A program made the translations under genes and the position numbers. This document shows positions 37,670-62,802 of a stretch of 64,000 nucleotides of DNA, in pieces. Each line of letters begins with the position of its first letter. The first letter of the stretch is position 1. The notes under the pieces are model-generated. The model had not been told where the DNA came from and searched no databases. It saw only the letters and a list, made by a program, of their open reading frames with translations. The DNA is from a virus: the IMG/VR virus record IMGVR_UViG_3300015374_000001, positions 1-64,000 of that record. The stretch is one strand, 5' to 3'.

Positions 37670-37744
37670 ATGTTTATTTTCTTTATTTCCCTGCTAGCCT
37701 TCGCACTATTGATAGTGGTCATAGTGCTTAAACAATTCATCTAA
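37670..37744 (+). CDS. 24-aa hydrophobic peptide (MFIFFISLLAFALLIVVIVLKQFI), not in ORF track
   Basis: TAATG overlap with rnhA; no SD sequence. Confidence 0.5.
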   Translation: MFIFFISLLAFALLIVVIVLKQFI

Positions 37745-38232
37745 TGCGCGGAAAACTGTTTTTTGATGGCGGCTGCCGACCTTCTAACCCCGGTCCTGCG
37801 GGATTTGCATGCGTCATTCAAATGGAGAATGGCGACGAGTACACCCTAGCTCGACACATCGGTTTCAAAACCAATAACGAAGCCGAATATTATGGCCTCA
37901 TTGTAGGAGTTAAATATGCTGCTGAGTGTGGAGCTACAGAACTTGAGATTTTTACTGATTCAAAACTGGTTGAAGGGCAAATCAATCAGGGTTGGAAGAG
38001 AAAAGATTTCAAGATGAAATGTCTTGCAGCAGAAGCAGAAGATGTTTTACGTAAACATTTCGAAGATAGCTGGGAATTAAACTGGCACAGAAGAGAGAAT
38101 AATTCTCTGGCAGATGAACTCTGTACCAAAGCTATCTTAGCTGGGCAGCTAGCGAATCCATTTGTTAGAAAAACTGCGGTCACAGCCGCAGATATTAGGT
38201 CTATGGACCCCTTTAGCCGCCCTTCAACTTAA
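37744..38232 (+). CDS. rnhA: ribonuclease HI
   Basis: FDGG..NPG, TNNEAEY, DSKLV, R..N..AD. Confidence 0.92.
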   Translation: MRGKLFFDGGCRPSNPGPAGFACVIQMENGDEYTLARHIGFKTNNEAEYYGLIVGVKYAAECGATELEIFTDSKLVEGQINQGWKRKDFKMKCLAAEAEDVLRKHFEDSWELNWHRRENNSLADELCTKAILAGQLANPFVRKTAVTAADIRSMDPFSRPST

Positions 38233-38364
38233 TAATTAGTTGAACCCATGCCCATCGTGTTTCACCACGGGCTAATATCCCCTCTAACGGGATAAGCGAC
38301 GAGTCCTTGGCGACAAATTCGGTCAACCTTGAGGTATCGCCCGCGAGAGTGCTACACTGCGGCA

Positions 38365-38473
38365 GTCGCTCTCGACACAGGCGACACCCTAGCACACCCC
38401 CGTTACCCCTCACTGCCTTTGTACCCTCACTCCGAAGGCAGACCCCTGAAGCGCGGTAGCGGGGGTGTGCTGC
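38365..38473 (+). ncRNA. candidate ~110-nt small RNA with C-rich loops
   Basis: TTGAGG-18-TACACT (TG-extended) upstream; 17-bp stem AGCACACCCCCGTTACC/GGTAGCGGGGGTGTGCT. Confidence 0.55.
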
Positions 38474-38477
38474 TTCA

Positions 38478-38490
38478 TGCTATGATCCCG
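38478..38490 (+). promoter_or_regulatory. extended -10 motif TGCTATGATCCCG
   Basis: Repeated at 43087 and 52538. Confidence 0.6.
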
Positions 38491-38494
38491 CGTC

Positions 38495-39097
38495 ATGGCG
38501 TCACGGCAATGGACCCCTCCCAAAGAGGATGGATTTATTTATATAGACGAGCTATGCGAAATAATCCATCGCAGAAACTCGACTGTCCGTAAATGGGAAC
38601 GCGAAGGTCGGCTACCTAAACGGCTAATGCCTCAGCGTCGAATCAGGAATTGGCGAGCTTGGACACACAAGCAAGTCCATGGCAAGAACGGAATTGTTGA
38701 ATGGATGAAGAAAAACAATCTTCATCCCGGTTCTGCTTTATCTCGATACCAACCTGATGAGGATGATATTAAAAAGCATGTAAGCCACATGCGTAAGCCT
38801 CGTTATTTGCAGCCTGTTCATATGGACATGGCAAGACAATGGGCAAATCGTGGCTGGTATATCGAGCAGATTGCAGAAGAGCTTTTACCGATCACTCGCT
38901 ATCAGTCGATTGAAGGTTTGATTCGCGCTCTTACCCAAGCATTTAAGTTAGAGGGATTTGAGATTCCGCCAAGTGCTTTAAGAGAAGAGCGACAGAAGCA
39001 GAAGAAAAAGAATTATTCTCAGACTTCTGGTGCTAAGGCACAGCGTCGTTTGCGGGCGCAACGTAAAGCAGAAGCCGCTAAACAAAACGCGGCATAG
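38495..39097 (+). CDS. MerR-type HTH DNA-binding protein
   Basis: IDELCEII.R..STVRKWEREGRLP...R...WR.W. Confidence 0.75.
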   Translation: MASRQWTPPKEDGFIYIDELCEIIHRRNSTVRKWEREGRLPKRLMPQRRIRNWRAWTHKQVHGKNGIVEWMKKNNLHPGSALSRYQPDEDDIKKHVSHMRKPRYLQPVHMDMARQWANRGWYIEQIAEELLPITRYQSIEGLIRALTQAFKLEGFEIPPSALREERQKQKKKNYSQTSGAKAQRRLRAQRKAEAAKQNAA

Positions 39098-39110
39098 AGA
39101 AAGGATCGTT

Positions 39111-39572
39111 TTGGCGCAAACAGTTAAGCGCAGGCGTCGTACTGCTCCGGCTAAAGGAAAGGCCAAGGTCAGCAGGACGAAGCCACGAGTAGAAGACACG
39201 GAATCTAGCCGGAATAAAGTTGTTAAATCAGTGGAGCATCGCGGCGTTAAAATAGAAGAGGGCCATGTTATCGGCGAGAACGGTCTTCCGGCGATTAAAA
39301 TTACCAATCAGGGCTCGGAGCTTGTCCCTGTTGCACAGTACGCGAATGTTACGATTGGGCCTGTTGCTGTCACCCGTTGGGTTGAAGATCCTGGTCTTCA
39401 TAAAATTACCGGTGTCGATCCTGACGACTTTGATGATGAGCAGGAATCGATTGCCGCTGCCCACAAAAACAACATCGCGGTCGGGCAAGCTCTACTTGAG
39501 GAAGTAATCGCGGAAGATCGGGAAGCTGTCGAGGAATCTGTGCGGAAGCAGAACCAGAAGGATAAGAAGTAA
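39111..39572 (+). CDS. hypothetical protein with Arg-rich N-terminus
   Basis: AAGGA RBS + TTG 39111. Confidence 0.7.
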   Translation: MAQTVKRRRRTAPAKGKAKVSRTKPRVEDTESSRNKVVKSVEHRGVKIEEGHVIGENGLPAIKITNQGSELVPVAQYANVTIGPVAVTRWVEDPGLHKITGVDPDDFDDEQESIAAAHKNNIAVGQALLEEVIAEDREAVEESVRKQNQKDKK

Positions 39573-39573
39573 A

Positions 39574-40977
39574 TTGGATGCTGAGCGGGGGCTAATCAGC
39601 AAAATAATTCAATCTGGCGATCTTGATACAGCGATTGCACGAGGAATTGAGTTAGATCATTTCGCTGATGAGGAATGCGAAGAGATATATGATTTCCTGC
39701 TAGACCATTGGCGGAAGTACAAATCTACCGCAACAGCCAAGGTTGTCCGCAAAGAATTCCCTGATTTCAAGGTAGCGGTAGATCGCAACACCCTCCCCTA
39801 TTTCATTGATCAATTCGTAACGACTGTCAAGGAGCGCGAGGCAATTGATCTTGTCCGCGACTTCCACGAAGCTCTAGAAGATCCAGAGCAGATTAATGAA
39901 ATAGAGCTAGTTGCGCTTGAGATGGCTCGCAAGCTGGTAGATGTAGTGCCAGCACCCCGCGTCAAGAAATTTTCTGAGGGGCTTGAGCGGATAAAGGAAT
40001 ACGATAAGCGTAAGAAGGAAGGGATGCCGCCAGGTGTGATGATGGGTATTCCCTCTTTTGACCGGGAAACGCTTGGAGCACAGCCGCATGAATTGGTTAC
40101 TGTAGTCGCCTATCTAGGCGTGGGAAAATCAAAGCTTCTACAGCATGTCGCGTATTCAGCTTATTTGCAGAAAAAGACGGCTGTATATATCTCCCTTGAG
40201 ATGGAAGCCGAAGCAATCCTACGTTCGCTTGACACTATGGCCACTAATTTTAAATACCATTCGCTCAAAGCCCTCGAACTTGATATTGGGGATCGTGAGC
40301 AATGGGAAAAGCTGGCCGAACAGGCTCACGAGGATCGACACGAGCGCGATATCTACATCATTGACGATATCCGAAACTGCACTGTCGATAATGTGGCAGC
40401 AAAACTCTTGCGGTACAAGCCAGATGTAGTAATTACGGACTACATGGAATTAATGCGGACGCCGAAAGGAATTGGGGGAGCGCATTGGGAACAGGTCCAA
40501 TACACGACGCAGGGTCTTAAGCAAAATGCGAGACTCTTTCGCGTCCCTCATATCTCGGCTGCTCAGCTTAACCGCGAGGGCGGCAAGGGTGAGGCTAGCC
40601 TTGCGAACGTTTCCTATCAATCTGTTGGCAAGGACTCCGATTTACTTATTGGACTCAATCAGGACGAGGAAGACGAAGCGCAGCAGGAAATGAAGGCTAT
40701 GCTGCTCAAGAACAGGGACGGTCGCAAGACCAGTACGAAACTGCGCTGGCAGTTAGAGCGCCATGTCATCCAAGAAAAAGGCGTGGCCGAACGCTTCCCT
40801 GAAAGAAATGATGATGGTAAGCTGAAGAATCCCAAGTTCAAGGGACGTAAGACTAGGCGAGAGCAAGATAAATTGCAGGTCGCGGATGAACTCAAAGGCG
40901 AAGATAATCCATGGAAGCCAAGAAAGCGTATGCGGGGATCGGCTCGCGCAAAACCCCGCAGTCGATCCTTAACTTAA
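39574..40977 (+). CDS. dnaB: replicative helicase (DnaB-like)
   Basis: AYLGVGKS, ISLEM, DYMEL, AQLNR, DSD, KNRDG. Confidence 0.9.
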   Translation: MDAERGLISKIIQSGDLDTAIARGIELDHFADEECEEIYDFLLDHWRKYKSTATAKVVRKEFPDFKVAVDRNTLPYFIDQFVTTVKEREAIDLVRDFHEALEDPEQINEIELVALEMARKLVDVVPAPRVKKFSEGLERIKEYDKRKKEGMPPGVMMGIPSFDRETLGAQPHELVTVVAYLGVGKSKLLQHVAYSAYLQKKTAVYISLEMEAEAILRSLDTMATNFKYHSLKALELDIGDREQWEKLAEQAHEDRHERDIYIIDDIRNCTVDNVAAKLLRYKPDVVITDYMELMRTPKGIGGAHWEQVQYTTQGLKQNARLFRVPHISAAQLNREGGKGEASLANVSYQSVGKDSDLLIGLNQDEEDEAQQEMKAMLLKNRDGRKTSTKLRWQLERHVIQEKGVAERFPERNDDGKLKNPKFKGRKTRREQDKLQVADELKGEDNPWKPRKRMRGSARAKPRSRSLT

Positions 40978-41498
40978 TGTGTCTACTCGGCAAGTCATTT
41001 GCCGATCATGACTGGATACTCAGAACAGGCGGTGCTGATGGCGCTGATCATGCATTTGCCATGGGCTGTGAGTCTGATTTAATTGATTACTCCGGTCGCG
41101 GCGGTGTGTTGGAGCTATACCTGCCGTGGGATGGATTTAATGGATTGCACTCCAAGTGGTGTCCGCCCAAGCGCGAGGCATATGAGCTTGCCGCAGAAAT
41201 CCATCCGGCTTGGCTAAAGTGCAGTGAGGCAGCGCAAAAGCTACATGCCCGCAACATGCATCAGGTACTCGGATGGGATTTAGACGATCCGGTGAAGATG
41301 GTTATTTGCTGGACGCCTGATGGAGCTACAGACGAAACTGGCACTAGTACAGGCGGCACAGGTCAAGCGATTCGGCTGGCCAATATGTACGAGATACCAG
41401 TCTTTAATTTATATTGGGTGCAACATAAAATGCGTGCTATGCGGCAGATCATCAATGAAGACGATGATCCTTGGGGCGTGGTGGCGAATAATCTATGA
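40911..41498 (+). CDS. SLOG-family (DprA-like) protein
   Basis: YAGIGSRKTP, LRTGGADGAD, GGTGQAIRLA, IPVFNL. Confidence 0.8.
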   Translation: MEAKKAYAGIGSRKTPQSILNLMCLLGKSFADHDWILRTGGADGADHAFAMGCESDLIDYSGRGGVLELYLPWDGFNGLHSKWCPPKREAYELAAEIHPAWLKCSEAAQKLHARNMHQVLGWDLDDPVKMVICWTPDGATDETGTSTGGTGQAIRLANMYEIPVFNLYWVQHKMRAMRQIINEDDDPWGVVANNL

Positions 41499-41977
41499 AA
41501 GCCTATGATCCCCCGCCAGAAGACGCTAAAGAGATTAATGAATTCACCTGGCGCGATGGACAACGCTGGATACATGGCGTTCCTAGCAACTTTTATATTG
41601 AGCCTGATGGTACGTCTGTTGAGATGGAGTTTCAGGCTGCTAAGACAAAGAACCCATTTGAAAAGAAATACATTTTTTCTTCGCCTACGCCGGGAGTCGC
41701 CAAGCAGCGCGGCAAAGAAGTCACGTTACTGAAGAATTGGGATGGTATTAAAGTAAAGGTGATGGAGGGCCTGGTCCGTCAGAAGTTCAATGACCATCCT
41801 GAGCTTGCCGCCTGGCTACTGGCTACCGGCGAGGCGATTCTACGGGAAGACAATACGTGGCACGATCAGTATTGGGGCAACTGCACGTGCTACGAGCGTA
41901 AGCATTTCTATAGGATCGGCGAGAATCATTTGGGCAAGATCCTGATGAAGATCCGCAAAGAATTAAATGCCGCGTAG
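41495..41977 (+). CDS. NADAR (YbiA-like) family protein
   Basis: E..FQAAK, W...K..VM...V..KF..H..L...LLATG, D.YWG, G.NHLGKILMKIR. Confidence 0.9.
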   Translation: MKAYDPPPEDAKEINEFTWRDGQRWIHGVPSNFYIEPDGTSVEMEFQAAKTKNPFEKKYIFSSPTPGVAKQRGKEVTLLKNWDGIKVKVMEGLVRQKFNDHPELAAWLLATGEAILREDNTWHDQYWGNCTCYERKHFYRIGENHLGKILMKIRKELNAA

Positions 41978-43094
41978 ACGTAGACTCAAAGCAAGCGAAT
42001 GGCTGCACAAGGTCGATGTGCAGGACTTCCTTGAAACGCTTGACATAATGAATATATCTCAGGCGCGTACCGATGAGCTTAAATTCTCTTGCCCCTTCTC
42101 AGGCCATTCGCACGGCGACGAGAACCCATCGGCCTACATGAACACGGGTGTAGTCGAGCCAGAGCGAGCTACTAAATGGAAGTGCCACGGCTGCAATCGC
42201 TCAGGCAATGCCATCTCGTTCCTCTCAGAGCACGAGGATATAAGTAAATTTGAAGCTGCTACCTGGCTGCGGCGAGAGTATGCCAGCGATTTCCGTTCTC
42301 CAAAGGGCGGCACTATCTCGGCAGAGTTTGAACAGCGGCGTAGGAAGTTCGAGGAAATGCGACAGCGCTCCTACGAAGCTGATCCATACCTAGACGAAGC
42401 TTGTCTATATCCTTTTGCGGTGAATTGGGATAAGGTACAGCAGGATGATTCTGATGCCGCTCAGTATTTAATTGGTCGTGGATTCGAGATAGATACTCTC
42501 AAGGAATGGGAAATCGGCTATGACGCAACCTCCGAAAGATGGGTTATCCCCGTGCGGGATAAGGATGGATTACTTGTGGGGTTCAAGGCACGTGCCTGGC
42601 GAGAAGGTCATAAACCTAAGTACCTCGTCCTGGGCGGACGTAGCTATGATTTTTCAACTTTTGACAAGTCTCACCATGTCTTCGGGCTCCACAGAGCAGC
42701 AGGAAGCTTTTCAGCGATTATTTGCGAAGGAGAATTAAATGTCATAGCAATGAATCAGATGGGTTTACATAACGCCATTTCGATCAGCGGTTCTAGCATG
42801 AGCGATAGGCAAGCTAAACTGATCCGCGATCATTTTACTTTGGCGTATTTATTTCTGGATCACGACAATGCAGGACACGCCGCGACCTGGGGATGGACAA
42901 GCAAGGACGGCACAGAGCATCGTGGAATTGTGGACCTTTTAGAACCGTTCATGAAGGTCTATATCGTCGGTCCGCATGAAGGCGATCCGGCAGATATGAT
43001 GCGGGATGGCAAGGACGATGAAGCTCAGCAGCTAATCGATAATGCCGAGGCCAGTACAAACTACGTTGCAATCCCCGATAGTCCCGTGCTATGA
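41967..43094 (+). CDS. dnaG: DNA primase (CHC2 Zn finger + Toprim)
   Basis: CPF..H.D.NPS...CHGC, PKYL, CEG, FLDHDNAG, DPAD. Confidence 0.9.
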   Translation: MPRRRRLKASEWLHKVDVQDFLETLDIMNISQARTDELKFSCPFSGHSHGDENPSAYMNTGVVEPERATKWKCHGCNRSGNAISFLSEHEDISKFEAATWLRREYASDFRSPKGGTISAEFEQRRRKFEEMRQRSYEADPYLDEACLYPFAVNWDKVQQDDSDAAQYLIGRGFEIDTLKEWEIGYDATSERWVIPVRDKDGLLVGFKARAWREGHKPKYLVLGGRSYDFSTFDKSHHVFGLHRAAGSFSAIICEGELNVIAMNQMGLHNAISISGSSMSDRQAKLIRDHFTLAYLFLDHDNAGHAATWGWTSKDGTEHRGIVDLLEPFMKVYIVGPHEGDPADMMRDGKDDEAQQLIDNAEASTNYVAIPDSPVL

Positions 43095-43099
43095 TCCCG
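43087..43099 (+). promoter_or_regulatory. extended -10 motif TGCTATGATCCCG
   Basis: TTGCAA-18-TATGAT upstream of SSB. Confidence 0.6.
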
Positions 43100-43150
43100 T
43101 CAAGTACGAAACGTCTTCGGACAGCTTATTAAAGCTTAGGAGTAAATAAA

Positions 43151-43969
43151 TTGGCAAGAACAAGATCCCGCACAGAAAAGCCAGGCCGCACTTTAGGAAA
43201 AGTTGCACGTGCCAAAAAGCGCGTCGATAGCAAAATGAGCGGCGGCAAGAAATTTTTGACGATTGAAGACGGCGAAACTGTTGTCATGCGTTTTCTTGAA
43301 GAGGGCGAAGACTTCAAGGATGCATATGTGCATAACACGCCTTTCGAGCGCGACGATGGAAGTACGTATTATCTCGACGTTCCCTGTCTCGATCAGGATG
43401 AAAAAGGTGTGCCTTGCCCTGGCTGCCGCGACGAGCTAGATATTAGATATAAATTCTATGTCTGCGCTATCGTCCGTGATTATCCTGAAGTCGATGACAA
43501 CGGCAAGGTTCTTGATGAAAAAGATCAGGTTGTTGTCTGGACTGGTGGCGTCAAGGTTGGAGATAAATTAGCTAAGAAGCATTCTCGATATGGTCTTATG
43601 TCGCGGGATTGGGAAATCACCCGTGATGGCGTTAAGCTCAAGACCGAATATGAAATTGAGCCTGCCGGTGATGGCGCTGAGCCAATGTCGAAGGAAGACA
43701 AGCAACTGGCAGAAACAAAGCCTGATTTAACCTTCTATGTGAAGCCGCCAGAGTTCGAAGAGTTTTATGTCTCTCCGAAGGATCGCGGAGATGCCAAAGC
43801 AGTAGAGGAAGGCAAGAAAGCAAATCCATGGGGAGAGCGTAAAAAGTCTGGTGGGAAGACAAAAGCAAAATTCCGTAGTAGCCGTAGTAGCGGCGAGGAT
43901 GGAGAAACAAAGGTGCGCTCCGGGCGAAAGCGCTCTAAAGGCACCACTAAAGTTCGTCGCCGCCGGTAG
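43151..43969 (+). CDS. single-stranded DNA-binding protein (gp32-like, Zn)
   Basis: FL.I.DGE...RFL...H...C...CPGC...ITR.G...T.Y; replication context. Confidence 0.75.
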   Translation: MARTRSRTEKPGRTLGKVARAKKRVDSKMSGGKKFLTIEDGETVVMRFLEEGEDFKDAYVHNTPFERDDGSTYYLDVPCLDQDEKGVPCPGCRDELDIRYKFYVCAIVRDYPEVDDNGKVLDEKDQVVVWTGGVKVGDKLAKKHSRYGLMSRDWEITRDGVKLKTEYEIEPAGDGAEPMSKEDKQLAETKPDLTFYVKPPEFEEFYVSPKDRGDAKAVEEGKKANPWGERKKSGGKTKAKFRSSRSSGEDGETKVRSGRKRSKGTTKVRRRR

Positions 43970-44004
43970 GCGACAGGGCATTTAACCAGCAAAGGAGGTA
44001 CATA

Positions 44005-44514
44005 ATGCCTATTTATAAAATCTATGTCGCCGATGACGACGAAAACCTTGAGTCTTTAGGTGAGGTTGACGCGGCGGATAGCGCTGAGGCCCTTGAAGGG
44101 TTTCTTGATGCAGCGACAGAGCAAGGTGTGGAAGTTGACTACGAAGCTGGATTTGAAGTAATTGAGGAATCCAGCATCGAGCATGTTGATGTTGAGGAAG
44201 AGCCACAGCCGCCCAAGCTGATTGTTAGCGTGGGTAGCGCGGCTGCTAAGCCGAAGCGTGGCCGTCCGAAGGGTTCTGGCCGTAAGCCTGGTCGGCCTAA
44301 GAAGGAAACGGCTGAGGAAGCTCCGAAGCGGCGTGGTCGCCCACCGGGTAGCGGTAAGAAGCGCGGTCCCGGTCGCCCCAAGGGTTCGACTAATAAAAAG
44401 ACCACCACAAAGTCAGCGCCTAAAAAGAGCGGGCGTGGGCCGGGTCGCCCGAAGGGGAGCAAGAACAAAACCCGTAAGTCTCCGTTCAAGGGCGGCGGCT
44501 CGGACGACGAGTAA
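44005..44514 (+). CDS. AT-hook (HMGA-like) protein with acidic N-terminal domain
   Basis: Five GRP cores: KRGRPKGS, PGRPKK, RRGRPPGS, PGRPKGS x2. Confidence 0.85.
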   Translation: MPIYKIYVADDDENLESLGEVDAADSAEALEGFLDAATEQGVEVDYEAGFEVIEESSIEHVDVEEEPQPPKLIVSVGSAAAKPKRGRPKGSGRKPGRPKKETAEEAPKRRGRPPGSGKKRGPGRPKGSTNKKTTTKSAPKKSGRGPGRPKGSKNKTRKSPFKGGGSDDE

Positions 44515-44536
44515 TAAATAAACTCGTGCCCGAGGA

Positions 44537-44576
44537 AGGATGGGGATCGGTTTCGGCCGGTCCCCGTTCTACTTTC
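44537..44576 (+). terminator. intrinsic terminator
   Basis: GGATGGGGATCGG/CCGGTCCCCGTTC hairpin followed by TACTTT. Confidence 0.7.
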
Positions 44577-44589
44577 AAAGGAGGTTTTT

Positions 44590-44976
44590 ATGGATCGTAA
44601 CGAGTTTGAAGATTTTGTTGAAGGCCACTATCAGGATATTATGGGCCTGAATAAAACTAAAGGCCATGAATATGCCGGTGATGAAGACGCTCTTGCTAAC
44701 TTCAAAGAAGTGGCTAAGGAACATGGTATTACCCCCGAACAGGCTTGGGGCGTTTATACATCAAAACACTGGAAGGCGATCCAGAGTTTTATCCGTGAAG
44801 GCCAGGTTCACAGTGAGCCGATTGAGGGACGAATCCAAGATGTGATTCTTTATTGTTTCCTTCTGCTTGGTTTAATTGAAGATGGCACCATTGAAGTTGA
44901 AGAAGAACGCATCACAGGAGCAGAAGAGGTGACCCGCGAGTTTACTCCATTGACACCACTCTCTGAGAACAACTAA
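44590..44976 (+). CDS. DUF1599/nucleotide-modification-associated-like helical protein
   Basis: KGHEYA..D.LANF...KH...RI.D.I.Y..LL pattern. Confidence 0.6.
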   Translation: MDRNEFEDFVEGHYQDIMGLNKTKGHEYAGDEDALANFKEVAKEHGITPEQAWGVYTSKHWKAIQSFIREGQVHSEPIEGRIQDVILYCFLLLGLIEDGTIEVEEERITGAEEVTREFTPLTPLSENN

Positions 44977-45248
44977 TGCCCAAGCAAGAAGAATTAGTTA
45001 GCAATGCGCCTTTGCGCGAGGCATTCGAGAACAGCGGTATGAGAGCTTATGATTTAGCTATTGCGATTGACTGGCGCAAAGGACCAAAGAGGAAGCCAGA
45101 TACTCAGCGCGTACAGAGAGTTCTAGGCTTAGCTCCGTATTACAATTCCTACAACAGCAGGAAGGCATTTGCTAAATCACTTACGATTGACAATGCCATT
45201 AAAATAGGGTCTGTTCTGAATCTCGATCCAGTGGATATCGGAGTATGA
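44976..45248 (+). CDS. putative HTH protein
   Basis: GM...DLA...VQRVLG...LNLDPVDIG. Confidence 0.6.
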   Translation: MPKQEELVSNAPLREAFENSGMRAYDLAIAIDWRKGPKRKPDTQRVQRVLGLAPYYNSYNSRKAFAKSLTIDNAIKIGSVLNLDPVDIGV

Positions 45249-45466
45249 GCGACGAGAAAGCATATGAAGAAAAATTGCCGACGCCTGGTACCTGGCCAGA
45301 GTGCGAGGTAGGTCAGTGGTACAGGGTTCTCCATGAATGGGATAAAGGAAAAGTAGGTAATTGCATCAGCACTAGCGAGACACTCTTTGGCCATCGCCAT
45401 GCTCGCTTGAGGTTCAAGGATGGCCACGAGCGAGGTTTCCGCACACATGATTTGCAGTTAGTTTAA
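45245..45466 (+). CDS. small SH3-like hypothetical
   Basis: Overlapping start/stop; VG...V...GKVG...LRF.DG. Confidence 0.6.
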   Translation: MSDEKAYEEKLPTPGTWPECEVGQWYRVLHEWDKGKVGNCISTSETLFGHRHARLRFKDGHERGFRTHDLQLV

Positions 45467-48400
45467 TGGGTCTAGCTCACCTTCATAAACACTCGGAATT
45501 TTCATCCATTGATGGGACCGGCAACGCTAATCAATATACCAAGCAAGGCTATAAATTCGAGCAAGAATTTATGGCTATTACCGACCATGGTAGATTGGGC
45601 GGCGTATTGGATCATGTCTACGTTTGTCAGAATCCTGATAAGTTTGACGATCCAGACGACCCGACTAAGAAGCGCGGTAAAGACGAAAAGTTAATACCGC
45701 TGCTCGGGATGGAAGCGTACTGGCGCGATAACCGCTTTCAGGAACAGAAGAGTTACAGCAGTGCAAATCATTTAACTCTGATCGCTGGCAGTCTCCGTGG
45801 TTGGCGGACATTGATGCGTCTATCGAGCAAGGCGTGGATTCCTATCGACCGCAAGGGCGGCTTCAAGGGCAAACCCTGCATCGATTGGGAAATGCTAGAG
45901 GCAGACCACGAGGATTTAATTGTTTGTTCTGGCTGTTTCGCTAGTCCACTTTCTCAATTAATCCTGGCCGGTGATCAATCAGGCGCAGATGAGTATTGCT
46001 CACGCATGCAGAACCTTCTAGGTGATCGCTTTTGGGGCGAGATAATGCCTCACGATCTAGATGAGCAGCGTTCAATCAATGAAGGCGTAATAAACTTATC
46101 TCAGGAGCATGGCTTTGGCGTCGTCGCAACAGGTGATGTGCATATTCCGTATCAAGAGTGGGAAGATACGGCGCTTGTGCTCAAGATGGTCAGCACAAAA
46201 CAGACGCTCTCCAAGCGCGCCAAAAAGCAAGAGGCTGGCGAAGACGTATACGGAGAGCGGATCGACACCATTTACTTAAGCCCGGAAGACGAGTTCCGCG
46301 AGCAGTTTGCTGAGTACCACGAGGATATCGATGAGGATATTGTCGATGAGGCGATAGCAAATACTGAAGTGTTGGCTCGCTCAGTCAAGCATTTTGTTAT
46401 CAGTAATGCCACTAAGCTGCCCAAGGTAGCTAAGACTTCACTAGATGCAGAGCGTATCGTCAAGCGTTGGTGCAAAGAGAGTCAATACCCAACGGGCAAG
46501 CCAAAGAATTGGCAGGAATATCGTGACCGATACAACTATGAATTCAAAGTGCTCCGAGACAAAGGTGTGTTGGACTATTTCATCTTGGTCGGAGATATGG
46601 TCCGCTGGGCAAAGAGCAGAGATGCGTTACCCGGTTCTGACAAGCGTAAGCGGCCTATCCGGGTGGGTCTTGGAAGAGGTTCTGCGGCAGGGTGTCTTAT
46701 CTCGTATCTCATCGGCATCACCGCAATTGATCCAATTGCCTGGGGTCTGTTGTTTGAGAGGTTTCTGAATCCTGATCGTGTCGGGATGCCGGATATTGAT
46801 CTTGACTTCGAGACTGACTTAAATGATTTCGAAACTCTCGACGGCAAAATGGTGGACGGCCGCGAGATGGTCAAGGAATATCTCAAGGCCAAGTATGGTG
46901 ACGATCACGTAGCGGATATCATTGCCTATCAGACCTTCGCTCCGCGCGTGACAATCAAAGAGGTTGCAGCTACACAGGATCTTCCTTATGGATTCATCAA
47001 AAAAGTCACAGATTCAATCGGAGATACAGAGCGCGATCTTGAAAAGATTGCAGCAGAAAATGGATTGGTTCGTAAACTCAAGACAGAACACCCCTACGTA
47101 TGGGAACAGTGCTTACGGCTCGAAGATCAAATACTCCGAGATACCCGACATGCAGGCGGCGTGCTCATTACCCCCCGGCCAACAAATGAGTATATGCCTA
47201 CTCAGATCGGAAATGATGAGATTACAACAGTCACAGCATGGGCGGATCGTGCCGATTTCCAAATTATCAGTGATTACGGATTTGTAAAGATTGACGTACT
47301 CGGTGTCAAGGGATTAGCGAAGCAGCAACTATGCGTAGATTTAATTGCTGATCACTATGGCGACATAGTTGAACCGAATGATCTACCGGCTCTGCGCGAT
47401 CCATACAACGCAGATCAAAAAGCGCTAGACGCATTTACTCAAGGATTGACTCTAGGTGTCTTCCAGTTCTCCGGGCGAGGGATCACAAATCTCCTGCGCC
47501 ACATCAAACCAGACAGCACCATCGACATTGCCGTTGCTAATGCCCTTTATCGGCCTGGCCCTATTAAAATTGCATTTGAATATGGGGATCGAAAGAACGG
47601 GAAGATACCCGAGGCCGATTGGTATTGGCACGATGCCGTCGAGCCCATCTTAAAAGAAACCTGTGGCCTGATTGCCTTCCAAGAGCAGGTTATGGAAATT
47701 ACTAAGGTCATCGGTAATTTCACGGGTGGGCAAGCAGACTCAATGCGTAAGGCAATCTCGAAGCTCTACCGGCTCCCTGGTGACCAGGCACGAGCATTCA
47801 TGCAGGGCTTCAAGGATCAATGGTTAGAGGGGTGTGAATCAAATGGCTTGGACGAAACCGCTGCCGGGGTTATCTGGGATGCCATCCTTGAATTCGCCGG
47901 ATACGGATTCAACAAATCCCACAGCGCCAGCTACGCCTTGCAGGCATATCAGGATATGTGGCTCAAAGTTAATTATCCCCTTGCGTTTTATGCGGCCACT
48001 CTTACCATCGAACGAAAAGCAAAAGCCGAAGAGGATGCCGAATGGAAGCGAGGGATCTTCCGCGAAGCAGAATTATTCGACGTAAAGATTGATCCGCCCG
48101 ATGTAAATGCCAGCGAGCGCGGATTCATTATCGATGGCGACCGGCTGCGTTATGGACTAGTCAGCGTCAAGGGCTTAGGAGGATTGACAGTTGATCAAGT
48201 CAAAGAGGTACGTCCAGTCTCTTCATTTGATGATTTTGCTAGGCGTACCCCAAGCAACTTCGGAGCCGATAATGCCGCCGCACTTGTTAAAGCTGGCGCA
48301 TTCGATTCCCTTGGAGAAGATCGGGAAGCGTTACTAGCCAAGACTCGGCGCTGGGCAAAGAACAAATACAACGTGGTGATGGCGTGCGGGTGTAAGAAGA

Positions 48401-49089
48401 TGCGGACGGGCGAGCCAGAGGAATGGAAGAAACCTGCCATTTGTGAGAAGCACGATTCGACTGAGATTAAGGAAATGATTGAAGTCGATCCGTACTACAC
48501 CTATGCGGAGCACATTAAGTTCCACTACATGAAGGACAAGGAACCGCCTGAGCAGGAATTGATCGAGCCTTCTCAGAACGAAATCCTTGAGATGGAAAAA
48601 GAAGTGCTCGGTAATGTTGTGTCGCGTGAGACTGTGGTGCATCGCTATCAGGAATTCATTGAAGATCGTATTTTCTCTACAGCAGAGATAGAGGATCTGC
48701 CGCACAAGCCTGAGGATCACAAACCCTGGTGCGACTGTGATGAATGCGAGGCAGCAAATATCGTGGTGGGCGGCGAGATATTGGCGGTCAAGCCTATTGT
48801 CACTAAGAAGCAAAAGAAGGAAATGGCTTTTGTTGATCTTGCCTTCGGAGCAGATCAATATGCGATCACGATATTCCCGAAGGCATGGGCCGAGAACAAG
48901 CACAAGATTAAAGACGCATCAGTGATCTTGGTGGCAGGCTTTAAGGACAATCGCAATCAGATTGTAGCTCAGCACATAGATGATGTTGAGACAATTGCAG
49001 TGGGCGAACAGCGGCGGAAGACGAAGGCAAGTCTTAAGAAAACAACGCGGAAGAAGGCGGGGACTAACCCATGGCTGAAGGCAGCTTAG
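45466..49089 (+). CDS. dnaE: DNA polymerase III alpha subunit
   Basis: PHP HLHKH..S..DG/TDHG, GRGSAAG, FERFLNPDR..MPDIDLDF, KIDVLG, YGFNKSH, OB fold; no intein. Confidence 0.95.
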   Translation: MGLAHLHKHSEFSSIDGTGNANQYTKQGYKFEQEFMAITDHGRLGGVLDHVYVCQNPDKFDDPDDPTKKRGKDEKLIPLLGMEAYWRDNRFQEQKSYSSANHLTLIAGSLRGWRTLMRLSSKAWIPIDRKGGFKGKPCIDWEMLEADHEDLIVCSGCFASPLSQLILAGDQSGADEYCSRMQNLLGDRFWGEIMPHDLDEQRSINEGVINLSQEHGFGVVATGDVHIPYQEWEDTALVLKMVSTKQTLSKRAKKQEAGEDVYGERIDTIYLSPEDEFREQFAEYHEDIDEDIVDEAIANTEVLARSVKHFVISNATKLPKVAKTSLDAERIVKRWCKESQYPTGKPKNWQEYRDRYNYEFKVLRDKGVLDYFILVGDMVRWAKSRDALPGSDKRKRPIRVGLGRGSAAGCLISYLIGITAIDPIAWGLLFERFLNPDRVGMPDIDLDFETDLNDFETLDGKMVDGREMVKEYLKAKYGDDHVADIIAYQTFAPRVTIKEVAATQDLPYGFIKKVTDSIGDTERDLEKIAAENGLVRKLKTEHPYVWEQCLRLEDQILRDTRHAGGVLITPRPTNEYMPTQIGNDEITTVTAWADRADFQIISDYGFVKIDVLGVKGLAKQQLCVDLIADHYGDIVEPNDLPALRDPYNADQKALDAFTQGLTLGVFQFSGRGITNLLRHIKPDSTIDIAVANALYRPGPIKIAFEYGDRKNGKIPEADWYWHDAVEPILKETCGLIAFQEQVMEITKVIGNFTGGQADSMRKAISKLYRLPGDQARAFMQGFKDQWLEGCESNGLDETAAGVIWDAILEFAGYGFNKSHSASYALQAYQDMWLKVNYPLAFYAATLTIERKAKAEEDAEWKRGIFREAELFDVKIDPPDVNASERGFIIDGDRLRYGLVSVKGLGGLTVDQVKEVRPVSSFDDFARRTPSNFGADNAAALVKAGAFDSLGEDREALLAKTRRWAKNKYNVVMACGCKKMRTGEPEEWKKPAICEKHDSTEIKEMIEVDPYYTYAEHIKFHYMKDKEPPEQELIEPSQNEILEMEKEVLGNVVSRETVVHRYQEFIEDRIFSTAEIEDLPHKPEDHKPWCDCDECEAANIVVGGEILAVKPIVTKKQKKEMAFVDLAFGADQYAITIFPKAWAENKHKIKDASVILVAGFKDNRNQIVAQHIDDVETIAVGEQRRKTKASLKKTTRKKAGTNPWLKAA

Positions 49090-49784
49090 AAACTATGCAC
49101 GCGCGCCGTAAAGTTAAACAGGCGCTAGGTAATTTCTTTAGAGAGATGGAGCTTGAAGTTGAGCCGCTAGCTAAGAATGCGACCAAGCAGGATATACGTC
49201 ATCGCATCAAGAAAGCTCATTTTTATTTAGGTGATATCGAGAAGGATCAGACTGGCGATTTCGATAGTCATTTCCTACGCCGACTAGATCATCCTAATGC
49301 GGCTCATCTAAATACTCGTGGGCAATTGATCCGTGGCAGAGTCAGGCGTAGGCGGCGACGCAACAATACGGCTCGTGGTATAGCGATGAAGTTATTCCGT
49401 GTCTGTAGCAAAATTTCTGATGCGCGGCCACGTTATGTATACGGCGGTGGACATGGGCCACTGCTTAGATTAATGCGGTCCAATGCCAATATGGATTGCT
49501 CATCATCTACCTCACTCGCGCTCAAGCGTGCAGGCATGTTCAGTTTTCCTATCGCTTGGGTATCCGGCATGTTCGGTGGCTGGGGCCAAGAGGGCAAGGG
49601 TGATTGGTTCACTGTTTGTTGGCACAGCGGGCATGTATTTATTGAATTCTATAACTTGCCTAACAAGGGCGACTATTATCGCTTTGACACATCGCCGTGG
49701 GGTGATGGCGAAAGTGGTGCTCGTTTGAGAGATGGTGAGCGCGGATACGCACAATTTAAGTTCCGCCATCTCCCTGGACTTTAG
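49071..49784 (+). CDS. NlpC/P60-family peptidoglycan hydrolase (probable endolysin)
   Basis: YVYGGGHG...DCSSSTSLAL...GHVF...RFDTS (Cys-His dyad). Confidence 0.75.
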   Translation: MAEGSLETMHARRKVKQALGNFFREMELEVEPLAKNATKQDIRHRIKKAHFYLGDIEKDQTGDFDSHFLRRLDHPNAAHLNTRGQLIRGRVRRRRRRNNTARGIAMKLFRVCSKISDARPRYVYGGGHGPLLRLMRSNANMDCSSSTSLALKRAGMFSFPIAWVSGMFGGWGQEGKGDWFTVCWHSGHVFIEFYNLPNKGDYYRFDTSPWGDGESGARLRDGERGYAQFKFRHLPGL

Positions 49785-49795
49785 AAAGGAATAAG

Positions 49796-51013
49796 TTGCC
49801 GGTAGATCCTAGCCGCAAGGATGATTTCCTTGCCAAAATGCAAAGGTCGCTTGGGCCAGAGAGCGTCATCCGTGGCGCTGAATTAATTGCTCTGCCGCCG
49901 ATCAAGCTGCCGTTTATGTCCCCGATGCTCACTTGGGCGACTACAGGAGGAATCCCGTGGGGGCATGTCTGCCGCTGGTATGGGCCAGAGCACTCAGGCA
50001 AGAGCCTCACAAACCTTGGATTAATTTGGGTAGCTCAGCATTACCACGAGGTACTTGAAGAGCAGTACGAATATCAGATCAAAGCAGTTGAAGGAAATAA
50101 TAAGTTCAAGGCGAAGAATAAGAAGGCCGAACTTAAGAAGCTGCTCGATAGATACCCCGAACAGCTTTCAGTAATGATGTGGGATACCGAGGGCAGATTC
50201 GATCCCCATTTTGCTGAAGCGATCGGTATCGATGCTAAGCAGATCGAGCTATCGAATCACACGATCATTGAGGAAATTTGTGCGGGCATTCACGATGGCT
50301 GGAATTCATTCCATATCCAGATAGTCGATAGTGCCTCAGCTACGCAAGCGGTGATGGAAGCTGGCATCAAACCTGGCGAATATACTCAAGGCGCTGGCCC
50401 ACAAGCTTGGACTAAATGGCTCAAGCAGGCGCTCAAGGACCGCGACCGTAACGAGAACGTATTAATTATGGTAGATCAGCTTCGGAGCCAGCTTGGTCAA
50501 GCTCGAAACAAGGGACCGGCGACAGCGCCTCCGGGCATCCGCGCTCTGCGCCATCAGGCGTCCGTAGCAATTGAGTATGAAGCTGCCAAGCGCCTGTATC
50601 GGGATAAGAACGGAAACCTCACAGACGATTGGGAAAAAGCCGATCCTGATATCCGCTCATTAGGTACCGACGGCAAAGAGCCACACGGAGTACAGATGAG
50701 TTGCAAGATCGTAAAAAATTCAACCGGGCGACCGTGGCGCAATGCCAAGATGCGTTTCGCATTTCCAGTGATGGATCACAGGACCGGTGAGGTTAGATTC
50801 CCAATTGGTTTTGATCATGTCTGGGAATTACTTGAAATAGGTCTTCACTTTGACATAATCGAGAAGGGCGGTGGTGGAATGCATTACGTCCTTGATGAAG
50901 ATTTTGATCAGACCGGCGAGAAGTACAAAGGCGAATCAGCTATGCGTGTAGCACTGGCAGAAGATGAAGATTTGCAGGATCGAATCCTCACGCGCATGTA
51001 TCGAGATATGTGA
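49796..51013 (+). CDS. recA: RecA-like recombinase
   Basis: GGIP.G...YGPEHSGKS, DTEG.FD, IVDS, QLR, G.RALRH.AS, KIVKN. Confidence 0.9.
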   Translation: MPVDPSRKDDFLAKMQRSLGPESVIRGAELIALPPIKLPFMSPMLTWATTGGIPWGHVCRWYGPEHSGKSLTNLGLIWVAQHYHEVLEEQYEYQIKAVEGNNKFKAKNKKAELKKLLDRYPEQLSVMMWDTEGRFDPHFAEAIGIDAKQIELSNHTIIEEICAGIHDGWNSFHIQIVDSASATQAVMEAGIKPGEYTQGAGPQAWTKWLKQALKDRDRNENVLIMVDQLRSQLGQARNKGPATAPPGIRALRHQASVAIEYEAAKRLYRDKNGNLTDDWEKADPDIRSLGTDGKEPHGVQMSCKIVKNSTGRPWRNAKMRFAFPVMDHRTGEVRFPIGFDHVWELLEIGLHFDIIEKGGGGMHYVLDEDFDQTGEKYKGESAMRVALAEDEDLQDRILTRMYRDM

Positions 51014-51234
51014 TGCTTAGATTGCTAGTCCCAATAGTAGGTTTATTAGCTGTTCTAGTTATTCTTACAGCTACTAATTTACCGTTGAAGAATTTTGATG
51101 GCAATCTCTTTGAACCCGGTTGTGATTGGGGCAACCCTCATTGTGAGCGCGAAGACTATAGGGATATGTGTACTAAACATATTTCAATTACAGACGGTGA
51201 ATATGTACGTTGGTGCAAAGGTAGGCATTGGTGA
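51010..51234 (+). CDS. small secreted/membrane Cys-rich protein
   Basis: Signal-like N-terminus, four Cys. Confidence 0.6.
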   Translation: MMLRLLVPIVGLLAVLVILTATNLPLKNFDGNLFEPGCDWGNPHCEREDYRDMCTKHISITDGEYVRWCKGRHW

Positions 51235-51437
51235 CCAATCCATTCCTTGAGAAAGCCAACAACCCCTTCTTTAAGAAAAAGAAGCGCGTGCGAGTTACAT
51301 GGCAGCACTCCTATGGCGAGAGCGAGCACGTAGGCAAGGTCGTATTTGAAGACAAGAAACACCTGCACGTGCGTAATGCTCAAGGCGTGATGCTTTATTT
51401 CTTCAAGAAGATCCCTCACAAGTTAGAAGTTCTGTAA
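51228..51437 (+). CDS. small basic protein with two NPF motifs (Sm/SH3-like)
   Basis: TNPF...NNPFF then beta-rich core. Confidence 0.6.
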   Translation: MVTNPFLEKANNPFFKKKKRVRVTWQHSYGESEHVGKVVFEDKKHLHVRNAQGVMLYFFKKIPHKLEVL

Positions 51438-52584: not shown

Positions 52585-54075
52585 TTGCTTGACAGTCTCA
52601 AGATTTCCGATGTAAATGCCCAGGCAATTCTGGCACTCGGAATCGCATTTGATGTATTTGATGATGACATTCCTGAGTCTCCGAAGGATCGGATGGAAGA
52701 GGCTCATAAATTAGTCGCCTTTGGAATTGAGGGTTTGCAAGGCGGCACAGATGATGAGGAAGTCGTTGAACAAATTAATGCCATCCTCGCGGCTGGTGGC
52801 GTTGAAGTAGACGGCGACGACGCGGAATTAGTTACTTTCGGCGAAGCTCCTGATCAGGATGAGCTTGAAGAACTTCTCTCGGAGCATGAAGTTGAGTTCG
52901 AATTTGAAGAAAGTGACGAGGAAGAAGAGGGCGACGAGGAAGAGGAAGTCGCCTTTGATGTTGACGACATAATTGAAGATTGGTCGTCAATGAAGTTGAA
53001 GGATGCCAAGGAAACTCTGACTGAGCTTCTGGCAGAGGAAGACGAAGAAGAGCAGCTTTCGTTTGAGGAAATTACCGCGCTGCTCGAATATGAGAACGAG
53101 CAGGACAAGCCTCGCAAGTCCATCGTCACTCTGCTTGAGGGAGCCCTTGAGGAATTCGAGGGTGAGGAAGAGGAAGAACCTGAAGGCGAGGAAGAGGGCG
53201 AAGAGTCTGAAGAGGAAGGCGAAGAGGAAGAGCCCGAAGGCGAATTTGATGAAGAGCCGTATGAGGGCTACGACGAAGCCAAGGTTGGGGATCTGAAGGA
53301 AGTCATTGATGACGAAGATCGCACGGCCGAAGAGCTTGAGTACATCGCCGGATACGAAGAGGCTCACAAAAATCGCTCTACCATTCTCAAGCGTGTCAAT
53401 GACCGCATTGAGGAATTAAGTGAAGAGCCAGAGGCCGAGGGCGAGGAAGAGCCTGAGGAAGAGCCGGAAGAGAAGCCCGCTAAGAAGCGTGGCGGTAAGA
53501 AGGCTAAGAAGGTTGATGCAGAGGAAATTGATGGCGACGAGCTTGAGGAAAATCTCCCGCCGCACTTCGCTGAATTAATCTCCGAGGATCACGCTATCGG
53601 CGTGGCCGAGGAACTTGGCCTGAAGCCTGCTGATGACGAATATGAGCAGGAAGAGCTTCCGGCTATGCCTGACGATATCGCCGCAGAGGATCGCGGGGAA
53701 TTGTCTAATCTCATGGCTCAGTACACAGCAGCGCATGGAACGGCTGCTTGGCTTGGGGCTCAGCAGTACACGCTTTCGAGCGGGTATGAGGAAGTGGCAG
53801 ACTATTATGAAAATGCCGCATTCCTTGAGGCCGATGGTAGCGAGGCCACTAAGAAGGCGTCGGCCAAGACTGACGGCCGGGTGGTCTACTTCCGCAGCCA
53901 GCAGAAAAAGGCATACAACCAGTACGTTGTCATGCGCGATGTGAAGGACACGCTCAAGCGGCGTATAGAGACAATTAGCCGTGTGGGCGGATTCAAGGTC
54001 GATGCGGATGACGCTGAGGCTCAGTCGGCACCGGCAAAGCCCAAGGGACGCAGGACTCGCAGCCGTTCTAAGTAA
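52585..54075 (+). CDS. very acidic protein with two repeated helical domains and possibly UvsY-like C-terminus
   Basis: Poly-E tracts; YE..(DKP/HKN)R repeats; helical C-terminus near recA. Confidence 0.75.
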   Translation: MLDSLKISDVNAQAILALGIAFDVFDDDIPESPKDRMEEAHKLVAFGIEGLQGGTDDEEVVEQINAILAAGGVEVDGDDAELVTFGEAPDQDELEELLSEHEVEFEFEESDEEEEGDEEEEVAFDVDDIIEDWSSMKLKDAKETLTELLAEEDEEEQLSFEEITALLEYENEQDKPRKSIVTLLEGALEEFEGEEEEEPEGEEEGEESEEEGEEEEPEGEFDEEPYEGYDEAKVGDLKEVIDDEDRTAEELEYIAGYEEAHKNRSTILKRVNDRIEELSEEPEAEGEEEPEEEPEEKPAKKRGGKKAKKVDAEEIDGDELEENLPPHFAELISEDHAIGVAEELGLKPADDEYEQEELPAMPDDIAAEDRGELSNLMAQYTAAHGTAAWLGAQQYTLSSGYEEVADYYENAAFLEADGSEATKKASAKTDGRVVYFRSQQKKAYNQYVVMRDVKDTLKRRIETISRVGGFKVDADDAEAQSAPAKPKGRRTRSRSK

Positions 54076-61706: not shown

Positions 61707-62802
61707 TAAAAACGGCTTTCCGATTCTGCTGGCCCAAGCTCCGGGCCAGGTAGCCGATCAAGGTGTGCCGTCTGGTGCATCAGTACAGCGCGACACTCAG
61801 CACGGTAACCCTTGGTTCGATCCTAAGACAGGGCGCTTCAGCAACGGGCCTGCCAATATGAAAATAGTTGCGGGTGGTCAGTTATTTGAGAAGCTGATCA
61901 ATGTTTCTCGTCAACTAATTCAGCGCAATATCGAGATGACCAAGGCTGATCAGATCGCGCTCTATCAAGTCGGCAACAGCATCAAGGTTGTATTGCTTGT
62001 GAACGGCTCGCCACGAGCTTCCTTCCAAGTACCGTCAGAAGATACGCCGGAAGATGAATTTAATGTCGCGGAACTAGAAGGGCAGGCTGGCCTCGGTGAT
62101 CCTACTGGACCTAAGAATAGATCTGACTTACCCGATGGAATTGATGAACTCCAATGGGAACGCCGCCTTGACGCAGTTAGAGACTTGGCCCGAACCTCCG
62201 ACACCCTGGAACCAGAAGATGTTAAACAATGGCTTGAAGATCGAGCCAAGGAAATCAGTAGTATCGATATTGATCAATTTATTCGAGATGTAAGAGCCCA
62301 TCGGCTTGACGATCTAGCTGATGCGATAAACACGAACCAGATGACTGCGCAAGAGAAGCGTGGACAAGTCCGTGTAGCTGCTCCGCAGAAATGGATCAAT
62401 GACAACATGCAGGGGCTAGAGGATCATGAAATCCTCAAGCTTGCCAATCGTCTTCAGGCTCGTGGATGGTCTGACGAGGATCTTAAATCAAAGGTATTGG
62501 CGAAGATCAAGGATGAGTCGCGGCGGACTGATCTTGAACAAAAGCTTGGCGAAGAGCCGCAGATACCAGAGCCAGCGCCAGTGCAGCTTGAGGATCTTCA
62601 GATAGCTGAGACTACTGAAGAAAGCCAATGGCAAAAAGACGTACAACAATTCTTTATGGATGCAATGAAGAGTATGCCACCGCCTCAGGTGAATGTAGAA
62701 GTGCCCGTGACTGTTGAGCGTGGCACGACCAATCGTAAAGTCATCCGTGATGAGCGCGGATATATTTCAGAAATAGTGGAGTCAAATGACAGTAGCGATT
62801 GA
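61690..62802 (+). CDS. hypothetical head-associated protein
   Basis: NPWFDPKTGRF motif; C-terminal PPQVNV...RKVIRDERG. Confidence 0.7.
   Translation: MAMPVDKNGFPILLAQAPGQVADQGVPSGASVQRDTQHGNPWFDPKTGRFSNGPANMKIVAGGQLFEKLINVSRQLIQRNIEMTKADQIALYQVGNSIKVVLLVNGSPRASFQVPSEDTPEDEFNVAELEGQAGLGDPTGPKNRSDLPDGIDELQWERRLDAVRDLARTSDTLEPEDVKQWLEDRAKEISSIDIDQFIRDVRAHRLDDLADAINTNQMTAQEKRGQVRVAAPQKWINDNMQGLEDHEILKLANRLQARGWSDEDLKSKVLAKIKDESRRTDLEQKLGEEPQIPEPAPVQLEDLQIAETTEESQWQKDVQQFFMDAMKSMPPPQVNVEVPVTVERGTTNRKVIRDERGYISEIVESNDSSD

Follow-up and report, generated by a model that had tools for sequence, protein, structure and literature searches.

The stretch of DNA analysed here, hereafter the window, comprises 64,000 nucleotides and corresponds to positions 1 to 64,000 (the first 64 kb) of the IMG/VR record IMGVR_UViG_3300015374_000001, a 94,196-bp record of an uncultured soil phage with an estimated completeness of 83%. 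The phage is tailed; it encodes a major capsid protein, a portal-MuF fusion and a tape measure protein, and its replication and recombination module lies on the + strand between 35 and 56 kb. This module contains, in order, the genes of a SNF2-type helicase, RNase HI, a helix-turn-helix (HTH) protein, the 39030 protein, DnaB, a SLOG/DprA-like protein, a NADAR protein and the DnaG primase, followed by those of a single-stranded DNA-binding protein (SSB), an AT-hook protein, DnaE, a UvsX-like recombinase and the 51228 protein (69 amino acids), and lastly by those of a Cas4-type PD-(D/E)XK nuclease, a 496-amino-acid poly-acidic protein and RuvC. Our subject is a short tag, N-P-[W/F] with basic residues close by, that several of these proteins carry near their ends. 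The first-pass annotation had quoted it from RNase HI, DnaB, SSB, DnaE and the 51228 protein, with variants in the SLOG/DprA-like and AT-hook proteins, and every peptide that it quoted was found at its position. The tagged proteins of the window are the following:

37744..38232, + strand: RNase HI-type protein (Pfam RVT_3, RNase_H), with NPF 38155-38163 and DPF 38206-38214 in the C-terminal tail
39574..40977, + strand: DnaB-type helicase (Pfam DnaB_C), with NPW 40906-40914 in the C-terminal tail
40911..41498, + strand: SLOG/DprA-like protein (phrog_768, E=6e-58), with the variant DPW 41466-41474 near the C-terminus, in an acidic context
43151..43969, + strand: phage SSB with a Zn-ribbon (PHROG SSB families, E=2.5e-9), NPW 43823-43831 and a basic tail ending in RRRR
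44005..44514, + strand: AT-hook protein with an acidic N-terminal domain and SPF 44479-44487, 8 residues before the C-terminus
45466..49089, + strand: DnaE-type polymerase (Pfam PHP, pol3 alpha, HhH, OB; net charge -37), with NPW 49066-49074
51228..51437, + strand: 69-amino-acid protein with two N-terminal NPF (51237, 51261), then KKKKR

The peptide reads ANPFVRK in RNase HI (its AAT codon at 38155, with the DPF at 38206), EDNPWKPRKR in DnaB (at 40906) and KANPWGERKK in SSB (at 43823), while DnaE ends in GTNPWLKAA followed directly by the stop codon (tag at 49066), and the 51228 protein contains TNPF at 51237 and NNPFFKKKKR at 51261. Looser forms, [SD]P[FW], are found as the C-terminal DDDPWG of the SLOG/DprA-like protein and as RKSPFK, at 44479, in the AT-hook protein. 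Two additional carriers lie beyond the window: a 211-amino-acid protein of the early region (p90751; 90751-91386, - strand) with three NPF+basic copies and one DPW, and an 83-amino-acid protein (p92438; 92438-92689, - strand) with the C-terminus VNPWVKH. p90751, which also corresponds to L070:6754-7386, may be a multivalent linker or may compete for the receptor of the tag. Four other copies were rejected as tail tags: that of the NADAR protein is within the fold and aligned to GHPW or GHRI in relatives, that of an HNH protein (91 amino acids) is in mid-protein and that of a 1694-amino-acid protein deep in the interior, both outside the terminal windows, and the 61663 copy is part of a separate conserved motif, GNPNxDPxTGRF. 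The last protein (61663-62802), encoded after portal-MuF, shares its N-terminal GNP[WN]xDPxTG[RK]F (about 61800-61840) with the relatives G001, G003 and G006.

The tag was far more frequent than expected by chance. Across 147 genes (30,247 amino acids), NP[WF] was counted 15 times, a number that none of 1000 within-protein shuffles reached (3.85±2.0), and NP[WF]x(1-2)[KR] occurred 12 times, against 0.79±0.89 (0 of 1000). When the termini alone were considered (35 residues at the N-terminus, 45 at the C-terminus), with shuffles confined to these segments so as to preserve tail composition, 11 copies were counted where 1.02±0.97 were expected. The rate per 1000 amino acids was 0.98 in termini, 0.21 in the interior and 0.06 in non-gene frames. 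The first-pass annotation had made its case depend on an excess over a shuffled proteome, and NP[WF] was indeed well above chance and terminus-biased. At the nucleotide level, 15 of the 24 words AAYCCNTGG/TTY lay in sense frame 0, with variable codons and flanks, which indicates selection on the peptide. In three copies a downstream gene overlaps the tag and starts within the NPW codons, at the ATG of CCATGG, with purine-rich codons ahead of this ATG; these starts belong to the SLOG/DprA-like gene (40911), an open reading frame (ORF) at 49071 and an ORF at 92453 on the - strand, within NPW 40906-40914, 49066-49074 and 92450-92458(-), respectively. In two of the three overlaps a TAA in the downstream frame stands 6 nt upstream (TAAYCCATGG). 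In DnaB, the final 22 codons overlap the SLOG/DprA-like gene.

The tag was also conserved among relatives of the helicase and of RNase H. A locus search with the DnaB alignment gave 4 viral and 23 metagenome loci, and none with a single DnaB query; ORF calls are crude in the high-GC relatives. NP[WFY] was present within the last 70 residues of 68 of 120 metagenomic DnaB homologues (36-78% identity), including 37 of the best 40, and 16 carried a double tag. The copies were almost confined to the tails, with 84 in 8,400 tail residues compared to one in 45,157 body residues. They fit the consensus K-x-N-P-[WF]-x-x-[KR], with K or R three residues past the aromatic in 70 of the 84, and lie a median of 10.5 residues from the C-terminus; N445 and P446 were at least 90% conserved (alignment A2). 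After the tag, many of the homologues P0021-P0140 end in ..KAA, ..AAA or ..VAA-COOH, and one sub-clade in ..K[AIL]GR-COOH. The Ala-Ala ends of these homologues, like the LKAA end of the window DnaE, resemble the ssrA tag, and a link to ClpX-type recognition is possible. In the RNase H orthologues (10 loci), NP[WF] was kept right after the last helix, N138 and P139 were near-invariant, and most orthologues had a second DPF about 14 residues further on. In the AlphaFold2 model of DnaB (alignment of 40 sequences) the predicted local distance difference test (pLDDT) score was about 90 in the core and 43-57 in tail residues 410-467, which include the NPW. In that of RNase H (11 sequences) the last helix ended at residue 137, the NPF occupied residues 138-140 and pLDDT dropped from 79 to 33, with values of 60 down to 33 in the tail. 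Both tags are therefore predicted by these models to sit in flexible tails and not to be docked in cis. By their distribution, DnaB and RNase H appear to be the ancestral tag carriers of the clade.

In SSB, KANPWGERKK was kept only in the relative of 75% identity, and the nearest relative keeps the tag on both DnaB and SSB (in the window ..DNPWKPR and ..ANPWGER, respectively), while more distant members of the clade have RRGSxF in the position of the SSB tag and an invariant RRRxR end. The window sub-clade (alignment A1) is also characterised by a strongly basic N-terminus, an internal RRGSxF (RRxS-like) and, in most members, poly-Asp runs. For the wider SSB family, a profile search of 1.84 billion representatives yielded 645 matches, and 130 full-length representatives were examined; alignments of this family proved too divergent to be used in locus searches. 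[NS]P[FWY] was present within the last 40 residues of 64 of these 130, with a median distance to the end of 5-7 residues and followed by R/K, and a further 27 had [NS][AVISG][FWY]. The stretch before the tag was neutral to acidic in this wider family, and many tips had merely 1-3 basic residues. [NS]PF with basic residues near the C-terminus thus appears, from these alignments, to be common in this phage SSB family, which is large and nearly all uncultured. A relationship of the 43151 protein to gp32-type SSBs was judged by profile similarity including the Zn ligands and the KRKTSYWANILV strand, and the match was weak: hhalign aligned the window SSB with T4 gp32 at E=0.004 and a probability of 8.5%, in register with CPxC and YWANILV. 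The window SSB profile had no PDB match. N-terminal charge, which would be expected to differ if a basic cooperativity peptide had been relocated to the C-terminus, showed no clear difference between SSBs with and without the tip, and the comparison of SSB core columns for co-variation with tip presence was confounded by divergence.

Furthermore, tags were found on other proteins in a lineage-dependent manner. The DnaE tag was kept only in the relative of 83% identity (P0142); DnaE proteins of 38-39% identity and those of the loci lack it. The AT-hook proteins of L046, L039, L050 and G003 have kept a tail with SPF or SAF; the post-recombinase proteins of G003 and G006 begin with ..ENPW.., at the same position as in p51228, and the 39030 homologue of G002 begins with MAEGTNPF. 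The p90751 homologue of G006 (31% identity) had no tags. SSB gained the tag in the window phage, P0002, P0020 and G002. SSB, the G002 homologue of the 39030 protein, the post-recombinase protein, DnaE and p90751 therefore seem to have acquired it independently in different lineages, and in the lineage of the window phage it appears to have spread to at least nine proteins.

The first-pass annotation had proposed a phage-specific docking motif on these proteins and had looked to orthologues for its conservation. The docking motif was supported by a conserved island, predicted flexible tails and independent gains, while the claim of phage-specificity gave way to a trait of a large uncultured clade; conservation held for DnaB and RNase H and failed for the distant SSBs, which have RRGSxF, and for DnaE at 38-39% identity. 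Literature searches on an NPW or NPF motif in bacteriophages brought up no account of one. The other observation of the first-pass annotation, the basic ends of replication proteins including the SSB tail, held up as well: net charge over the last 25 residues averaged +2.15 in replication-module proteins and -0.11 in the rest (Mann-Whitney p=0.006), reaching +10 in DnaE, +8 in SSB and +7 in DnaB.

The remaining proteins of the module that bear on the replisome carry no tag or have basic ends only, as follows:

38495-39097, + strand: HTH protein, basic end; gene order kept in nearly all loci
39030-39572, + strand: 39030 protein, unassigned family, basic end; its order upstream of DnaB kept in nearly all loci
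41967..43094, + strand: DnaG-type primase, short, untagged (Pfam Zn_ribbon_DnaG, DNAG_N, Toprim; net charge -15)
49796..51013, + strand: UvsX-like recombinase, untagged (phrog_97, E=1.9e-22)
52585..54075, + strand: poly-acidic protein, 496 amino acids, net charge -109, C-terminal end basic; no family match

The HTH and 39030 proteins are possibly an initiator and a helicase loader, and both are candidate receptors of the tag. Pfam and PHROGs gave no family for p90751, p92438, p51228, the 39030 protein or the acidic protein. The acidic protein, which sits between the Cas4-type nuclease and RuvC, has Glu-rich low-complexity runs and a KKRGGKKAKK patch, and in G001 its gene is broken into two ORFs; an Atlas search with its C-domain returned no more than viral clusters of hypothetical proteins and, at 0.86, a weak lead to UvsY. 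This phage has no close cultured relative, since its DnaE reached about 30% identity or less and its DnaB 27% or less, and SSB gave a single weak match. A search of 185,579 species genomes with the DnaB alignment found no relative in bacterial genomes, which left the clade without a link to the genome of a host.

Several of the usual bacterial connectors of a replisome were not visible in this module. The first-pass annotation had noted that the window encodes no sliding clamp, and no beta-clamp or gp45 family was found even in the whole record, nor in four relatives estimated to be 96-100% complete. DnaE had no domain past the OB fold, no QxxLF-type clamp motif after the HhH domain, no recognisable clamp-binding pentapeptide and no tau-binding domain, and by Pfam the primase (41967..43094) was without the C-terminal helicase-binding domain. 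The lack of visible clamp, tau and primase helicase-binding connectors leaves room for a replisome organised by tails. DnaE also has Cys-rich inserts, CGCKK..CEKH and CDCDEC, at residues of about 960-1100, between HhH and OB.

Taken together, these data show a motif that is enriched, under protein-level selection and conserved in a large clade. Like a short linear motif, it lies in predicted-flexible regions as a conserved island between variable flanks, and it has arisen several times independently on unrelated proteins. We consider NP[W/F]x(1-2)[K/R] to be probably (with a rough probability of 0.6) a conserved short linear docking motif in a DnaE replisome that showed no clamp gene and no canonical clamp-binding motif. 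In such a replisome, a pocket of a shared protein receptor would receive the Asn-Pro turn and the one aromatic side chain that the flexible and mostly basic tails present, and the basic flanks could steer the tails electrostatically toward an acidic surface. The helicase, RNase H, SSB and the AT-hook protein would then be tethered to the same site of the replisome, in this phage together with DnaE and several small early proteins, and multivalent carriers, namely p90751, p51228 and double-tagged hexameric DnaB, could add avidity. That the tag binds a protein, that one receptor serves all carriers and what this receptor could be are what we infer from these patterns; a single hub is plausible.

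The leading guesses for the receptor, DnaE and the SSB core, are drawn by analogy. The acidic DnaE (net charge -37) is a tentative candidate, as the analogue of the T7 case. The SSB core, by analogy with the T4 gp32 site that takes a neighbour's basic peptide and RNase H, is a more doubtful one, and it would explain why DnaE is a client here. Another phage protein (the primase, the 39030 protein, the UvsX-like recombinase or the C-domain of the acidic protein) is just as doubtful as the SSB core, and a universal host protein is the least likely receptor of these.

Some observations weigh against a docking motif common to the whole replisome. Most of the clade has RRGSxF instead of NP[WF] in SSB, and an untagged DnaE, so one code for all proteins is complete only in this phage and its nearest relative. 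DnaE is tagged too, which speaks against its being the only receptor. In this phage, the basic stretch after the DnaB NPW is encoded by the 5' part of SLOG, read in a different frame, and it may for this reason be partly accidental. In addition, although RNase H and DnaB have the same type of aromatic in all 8 loci of relatives that have both (six W/W and two F/F), the number of independent lineages behind these loci is small, and the window combines F in RNase H with W in DnaB.

Among the alternatives to a docking motif, one is a charge-driven compartment, which the first-pass annotation had also put forward, with the poly-acidic protein as candidate scaffold. Here the basic tails would co-condense with the -109 protein and/or with DNA and the AT-hook protein, NP[WF] acting as an aromatic "sticker". 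The basic C-tails of the module, more so than in the rest of the proteome, an extremely acidic protein and the multivalency of the tags (three in p90751, two in p51228 and two in many DnaB tails) are all in line with it. The acidic protein was present in G001, G003, G004 and G006, where the RNase H tags are kept, and absent from the untagged G005; however, the same presence and absence pattern was shown by HTH-38495, RNase H, NADAR and RuvC. Moreover, N and P were near-invariant while the charged flanks drifted, as predicted for a fitted pocket and not for a coacervate, and the wider SSB family is neutral to acidic before the tag. Since strict conservation of N-P-aromatic argues against a purely electrostatic mechanism, we regard such a compartment as improbable.

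A nucleic-acid tether is equally improbable. Here the basic tail and a stacking aromatic (as in Lys-Trp-Lys peptides) would bind single-stranded DNA or RNA-DNA hybrids directly, and so hold the DNA enzymes to their substrate in place of a clamp. All well-supported carriers act on DNA, their tails are basic, and a clamp gene was found neither in the record nor in the four near-complete relatives. Yet this would leave the invariant Asn-Pro without a reason, a second weak DNA-binding peptide would be needless for an SSB, and many SSB tips of the wider family have 1-3 basic residues with acidic residues before the tag.

The tag could also recruit its carriers to a universal host protein, for instance the host beta sliding clamp through a non-canonical clamp-binding peptide. 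In line with such a hub, no phage clamp was found, and DnaE has no QxxLF-type motif after HhH and carries the tag at its extreme C-terminus, the place of the second clamp motif of E. coli Pol III alpha; as the GC content of the clade ranges from 42 to 65%, a host reader would have to be universal. Nevertheless, NP[WF]xxK has no likeness to QL[SD]LF or to QLxLxL, neither helicases nor SSBs are known to be clamp clients, and the clade had no trace in the 185,579 species genomes. Recruitment to a host hub is likewise improbable. Lastly, a DNA-level by-product, AAY CCA TGG being a ribosome-binding site and start codon of an overlapping next gene, is suggested by three of the five NPW tail tags (DnaB, SSB, DnaE, p92438 and the 61672 copy) that hold a downstream start, and is largely refuted as a general account and very improbable, because no ATG is possible in the NPF copies, the words are biased to frame 0, those outside it fall in no other sense frame of any credible gene, their flanks are not conserved, and orthologues keep the tag without downstream overlap, W and F interchanging.

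A docking motif as proposed here admits a wider, tentative and somewhat doubtful extension, in which the tag would be the tail code of a large group of uncultured phages that began at the SSB tip and was copied to the helicase, RNase H, the polymerase and host-takeover proteins, so that one pocket wires a replisome without a clamp. Few peptide-pocket codes of replisomes exist, those of clamp-binding motifs, of the SSB-Ct tip and of the T7 acidic tails. If true, the tag would do in phages what the SSB-Ct and beta-clamp hubs do in bacteria, with the charge reversed, and it would have converged on the human POLE2-NPF system. It would give a handle on the organisation of replication in DnaE phages without a clamp gene, could serve as a sequence signature for replisome and takeover proteins among hypothetical phage genes, and would offer a natural peptide-receptor pair for the design of inhibitors or tools.

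When compared to known systems, the tag resembles clamp-binding peptides (QL[SD]LF, the PIP box and T4 gp45-binding tails) in being terminal and common to the polymerase and primer-processing enzymes, and differs from them in its unrelated sequence, the absence of a clamp gene and its presence on the helicase and SSB; the DnaB tag consensus does not fit the beta-clamp motif QL[SD]LF/QLxLxL, and DnaE contains none. EH-domain and AP-2 ligands (NPF, DP[FW]) have identical tripeptides, multivalency and a disordered location, but they belong to eukaryotic endocytosis, an unrelated biology, and the resemblance is of the peptide alone; no EH or EF-hand family was among the Pfam matches of the 37 proteins scanned. 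The bacterial SSB-Ct (..DDDIPF) is similar in that an SSB tail tip with a Pro-Phe core addresses many DNA enzymes, whereas here the clients are tagged too, the flanks are basic and the free carboxylate is not used. The window SSB tail, with a charge of +8 and ending in RRRR, has no acidic run with an I-P-F end, and the wider family has [NS]PF followed by R/K.

Other parallels come from the replisomes of T4 and of human cells. In T4, the gp32 core is used by the basic N-terminal (B-domain) peptide and by RNase H, and the acidic C-domain binds primase, the loader and RNase H (PMC3012046). In humans NPF is an established docking motif of the replisome: POLE2 reads the NPF of several replisome proteins, which forms a compact Asx turn in a shallow pocket, and a basic residue before NPF contributes to the binding (bioRxiv 10.1101/2025.03.17.643635). 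As proposed for the present tag, this NPF lies in disordered regions of several replisome proteins and has one hub subunit as its reader, but POLE2 is a eukaryotic polymerase B-subunit receptor for which W is not described. The parallel is one of convergence, not homology, and would be a striking one.

The best reading by analogy is that the tag would be a functional, charge-reversed counterpart of the T7 gp4 and gp2.5 tails. In T7, where these tails dock on the gp5 polymerase, a DTDF peptide of the gp4 tail lies on gp5 in PDB 6P7E, and the gp2.5 tail can be modelled on it (PMC12339929). As in T7, the helicase and SSB share a flexible tail tip with one essential aromatic in a replisome without a ring clamp; such a shared tip was found in the window and is partly general, as most SSBs of the clade carry RRGSxF. 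A T7-like pairing was seen by eye in three cultured phages of Firmicutes with PolA, distant relatives that have DnaB and an SSB of the present type, where SSB and DnaB both end in ..[EDAG][VLAG]F-COOH: ..RGRGF and ..GVEAF in Dp-1 (L071), ..ETEVF and ..GEELF in Flasso (L072), and ..GADVF and ..GTEVF in FA88 (L073). This shared tail is unannotated in the three records. The present tag departs from the T7 tails in having basic flanks and an N-P-[WF] core, where those are acidic and end in a C-terminal Phe with its carboxylate, in having from 2 to more than 40 residues after the aromatic, being internal, N-terminal or repeated, and in occurring also on RNase H, the AT-hook protein, DnaE and early proteins, with DnaE and not PolA as the polymerase.

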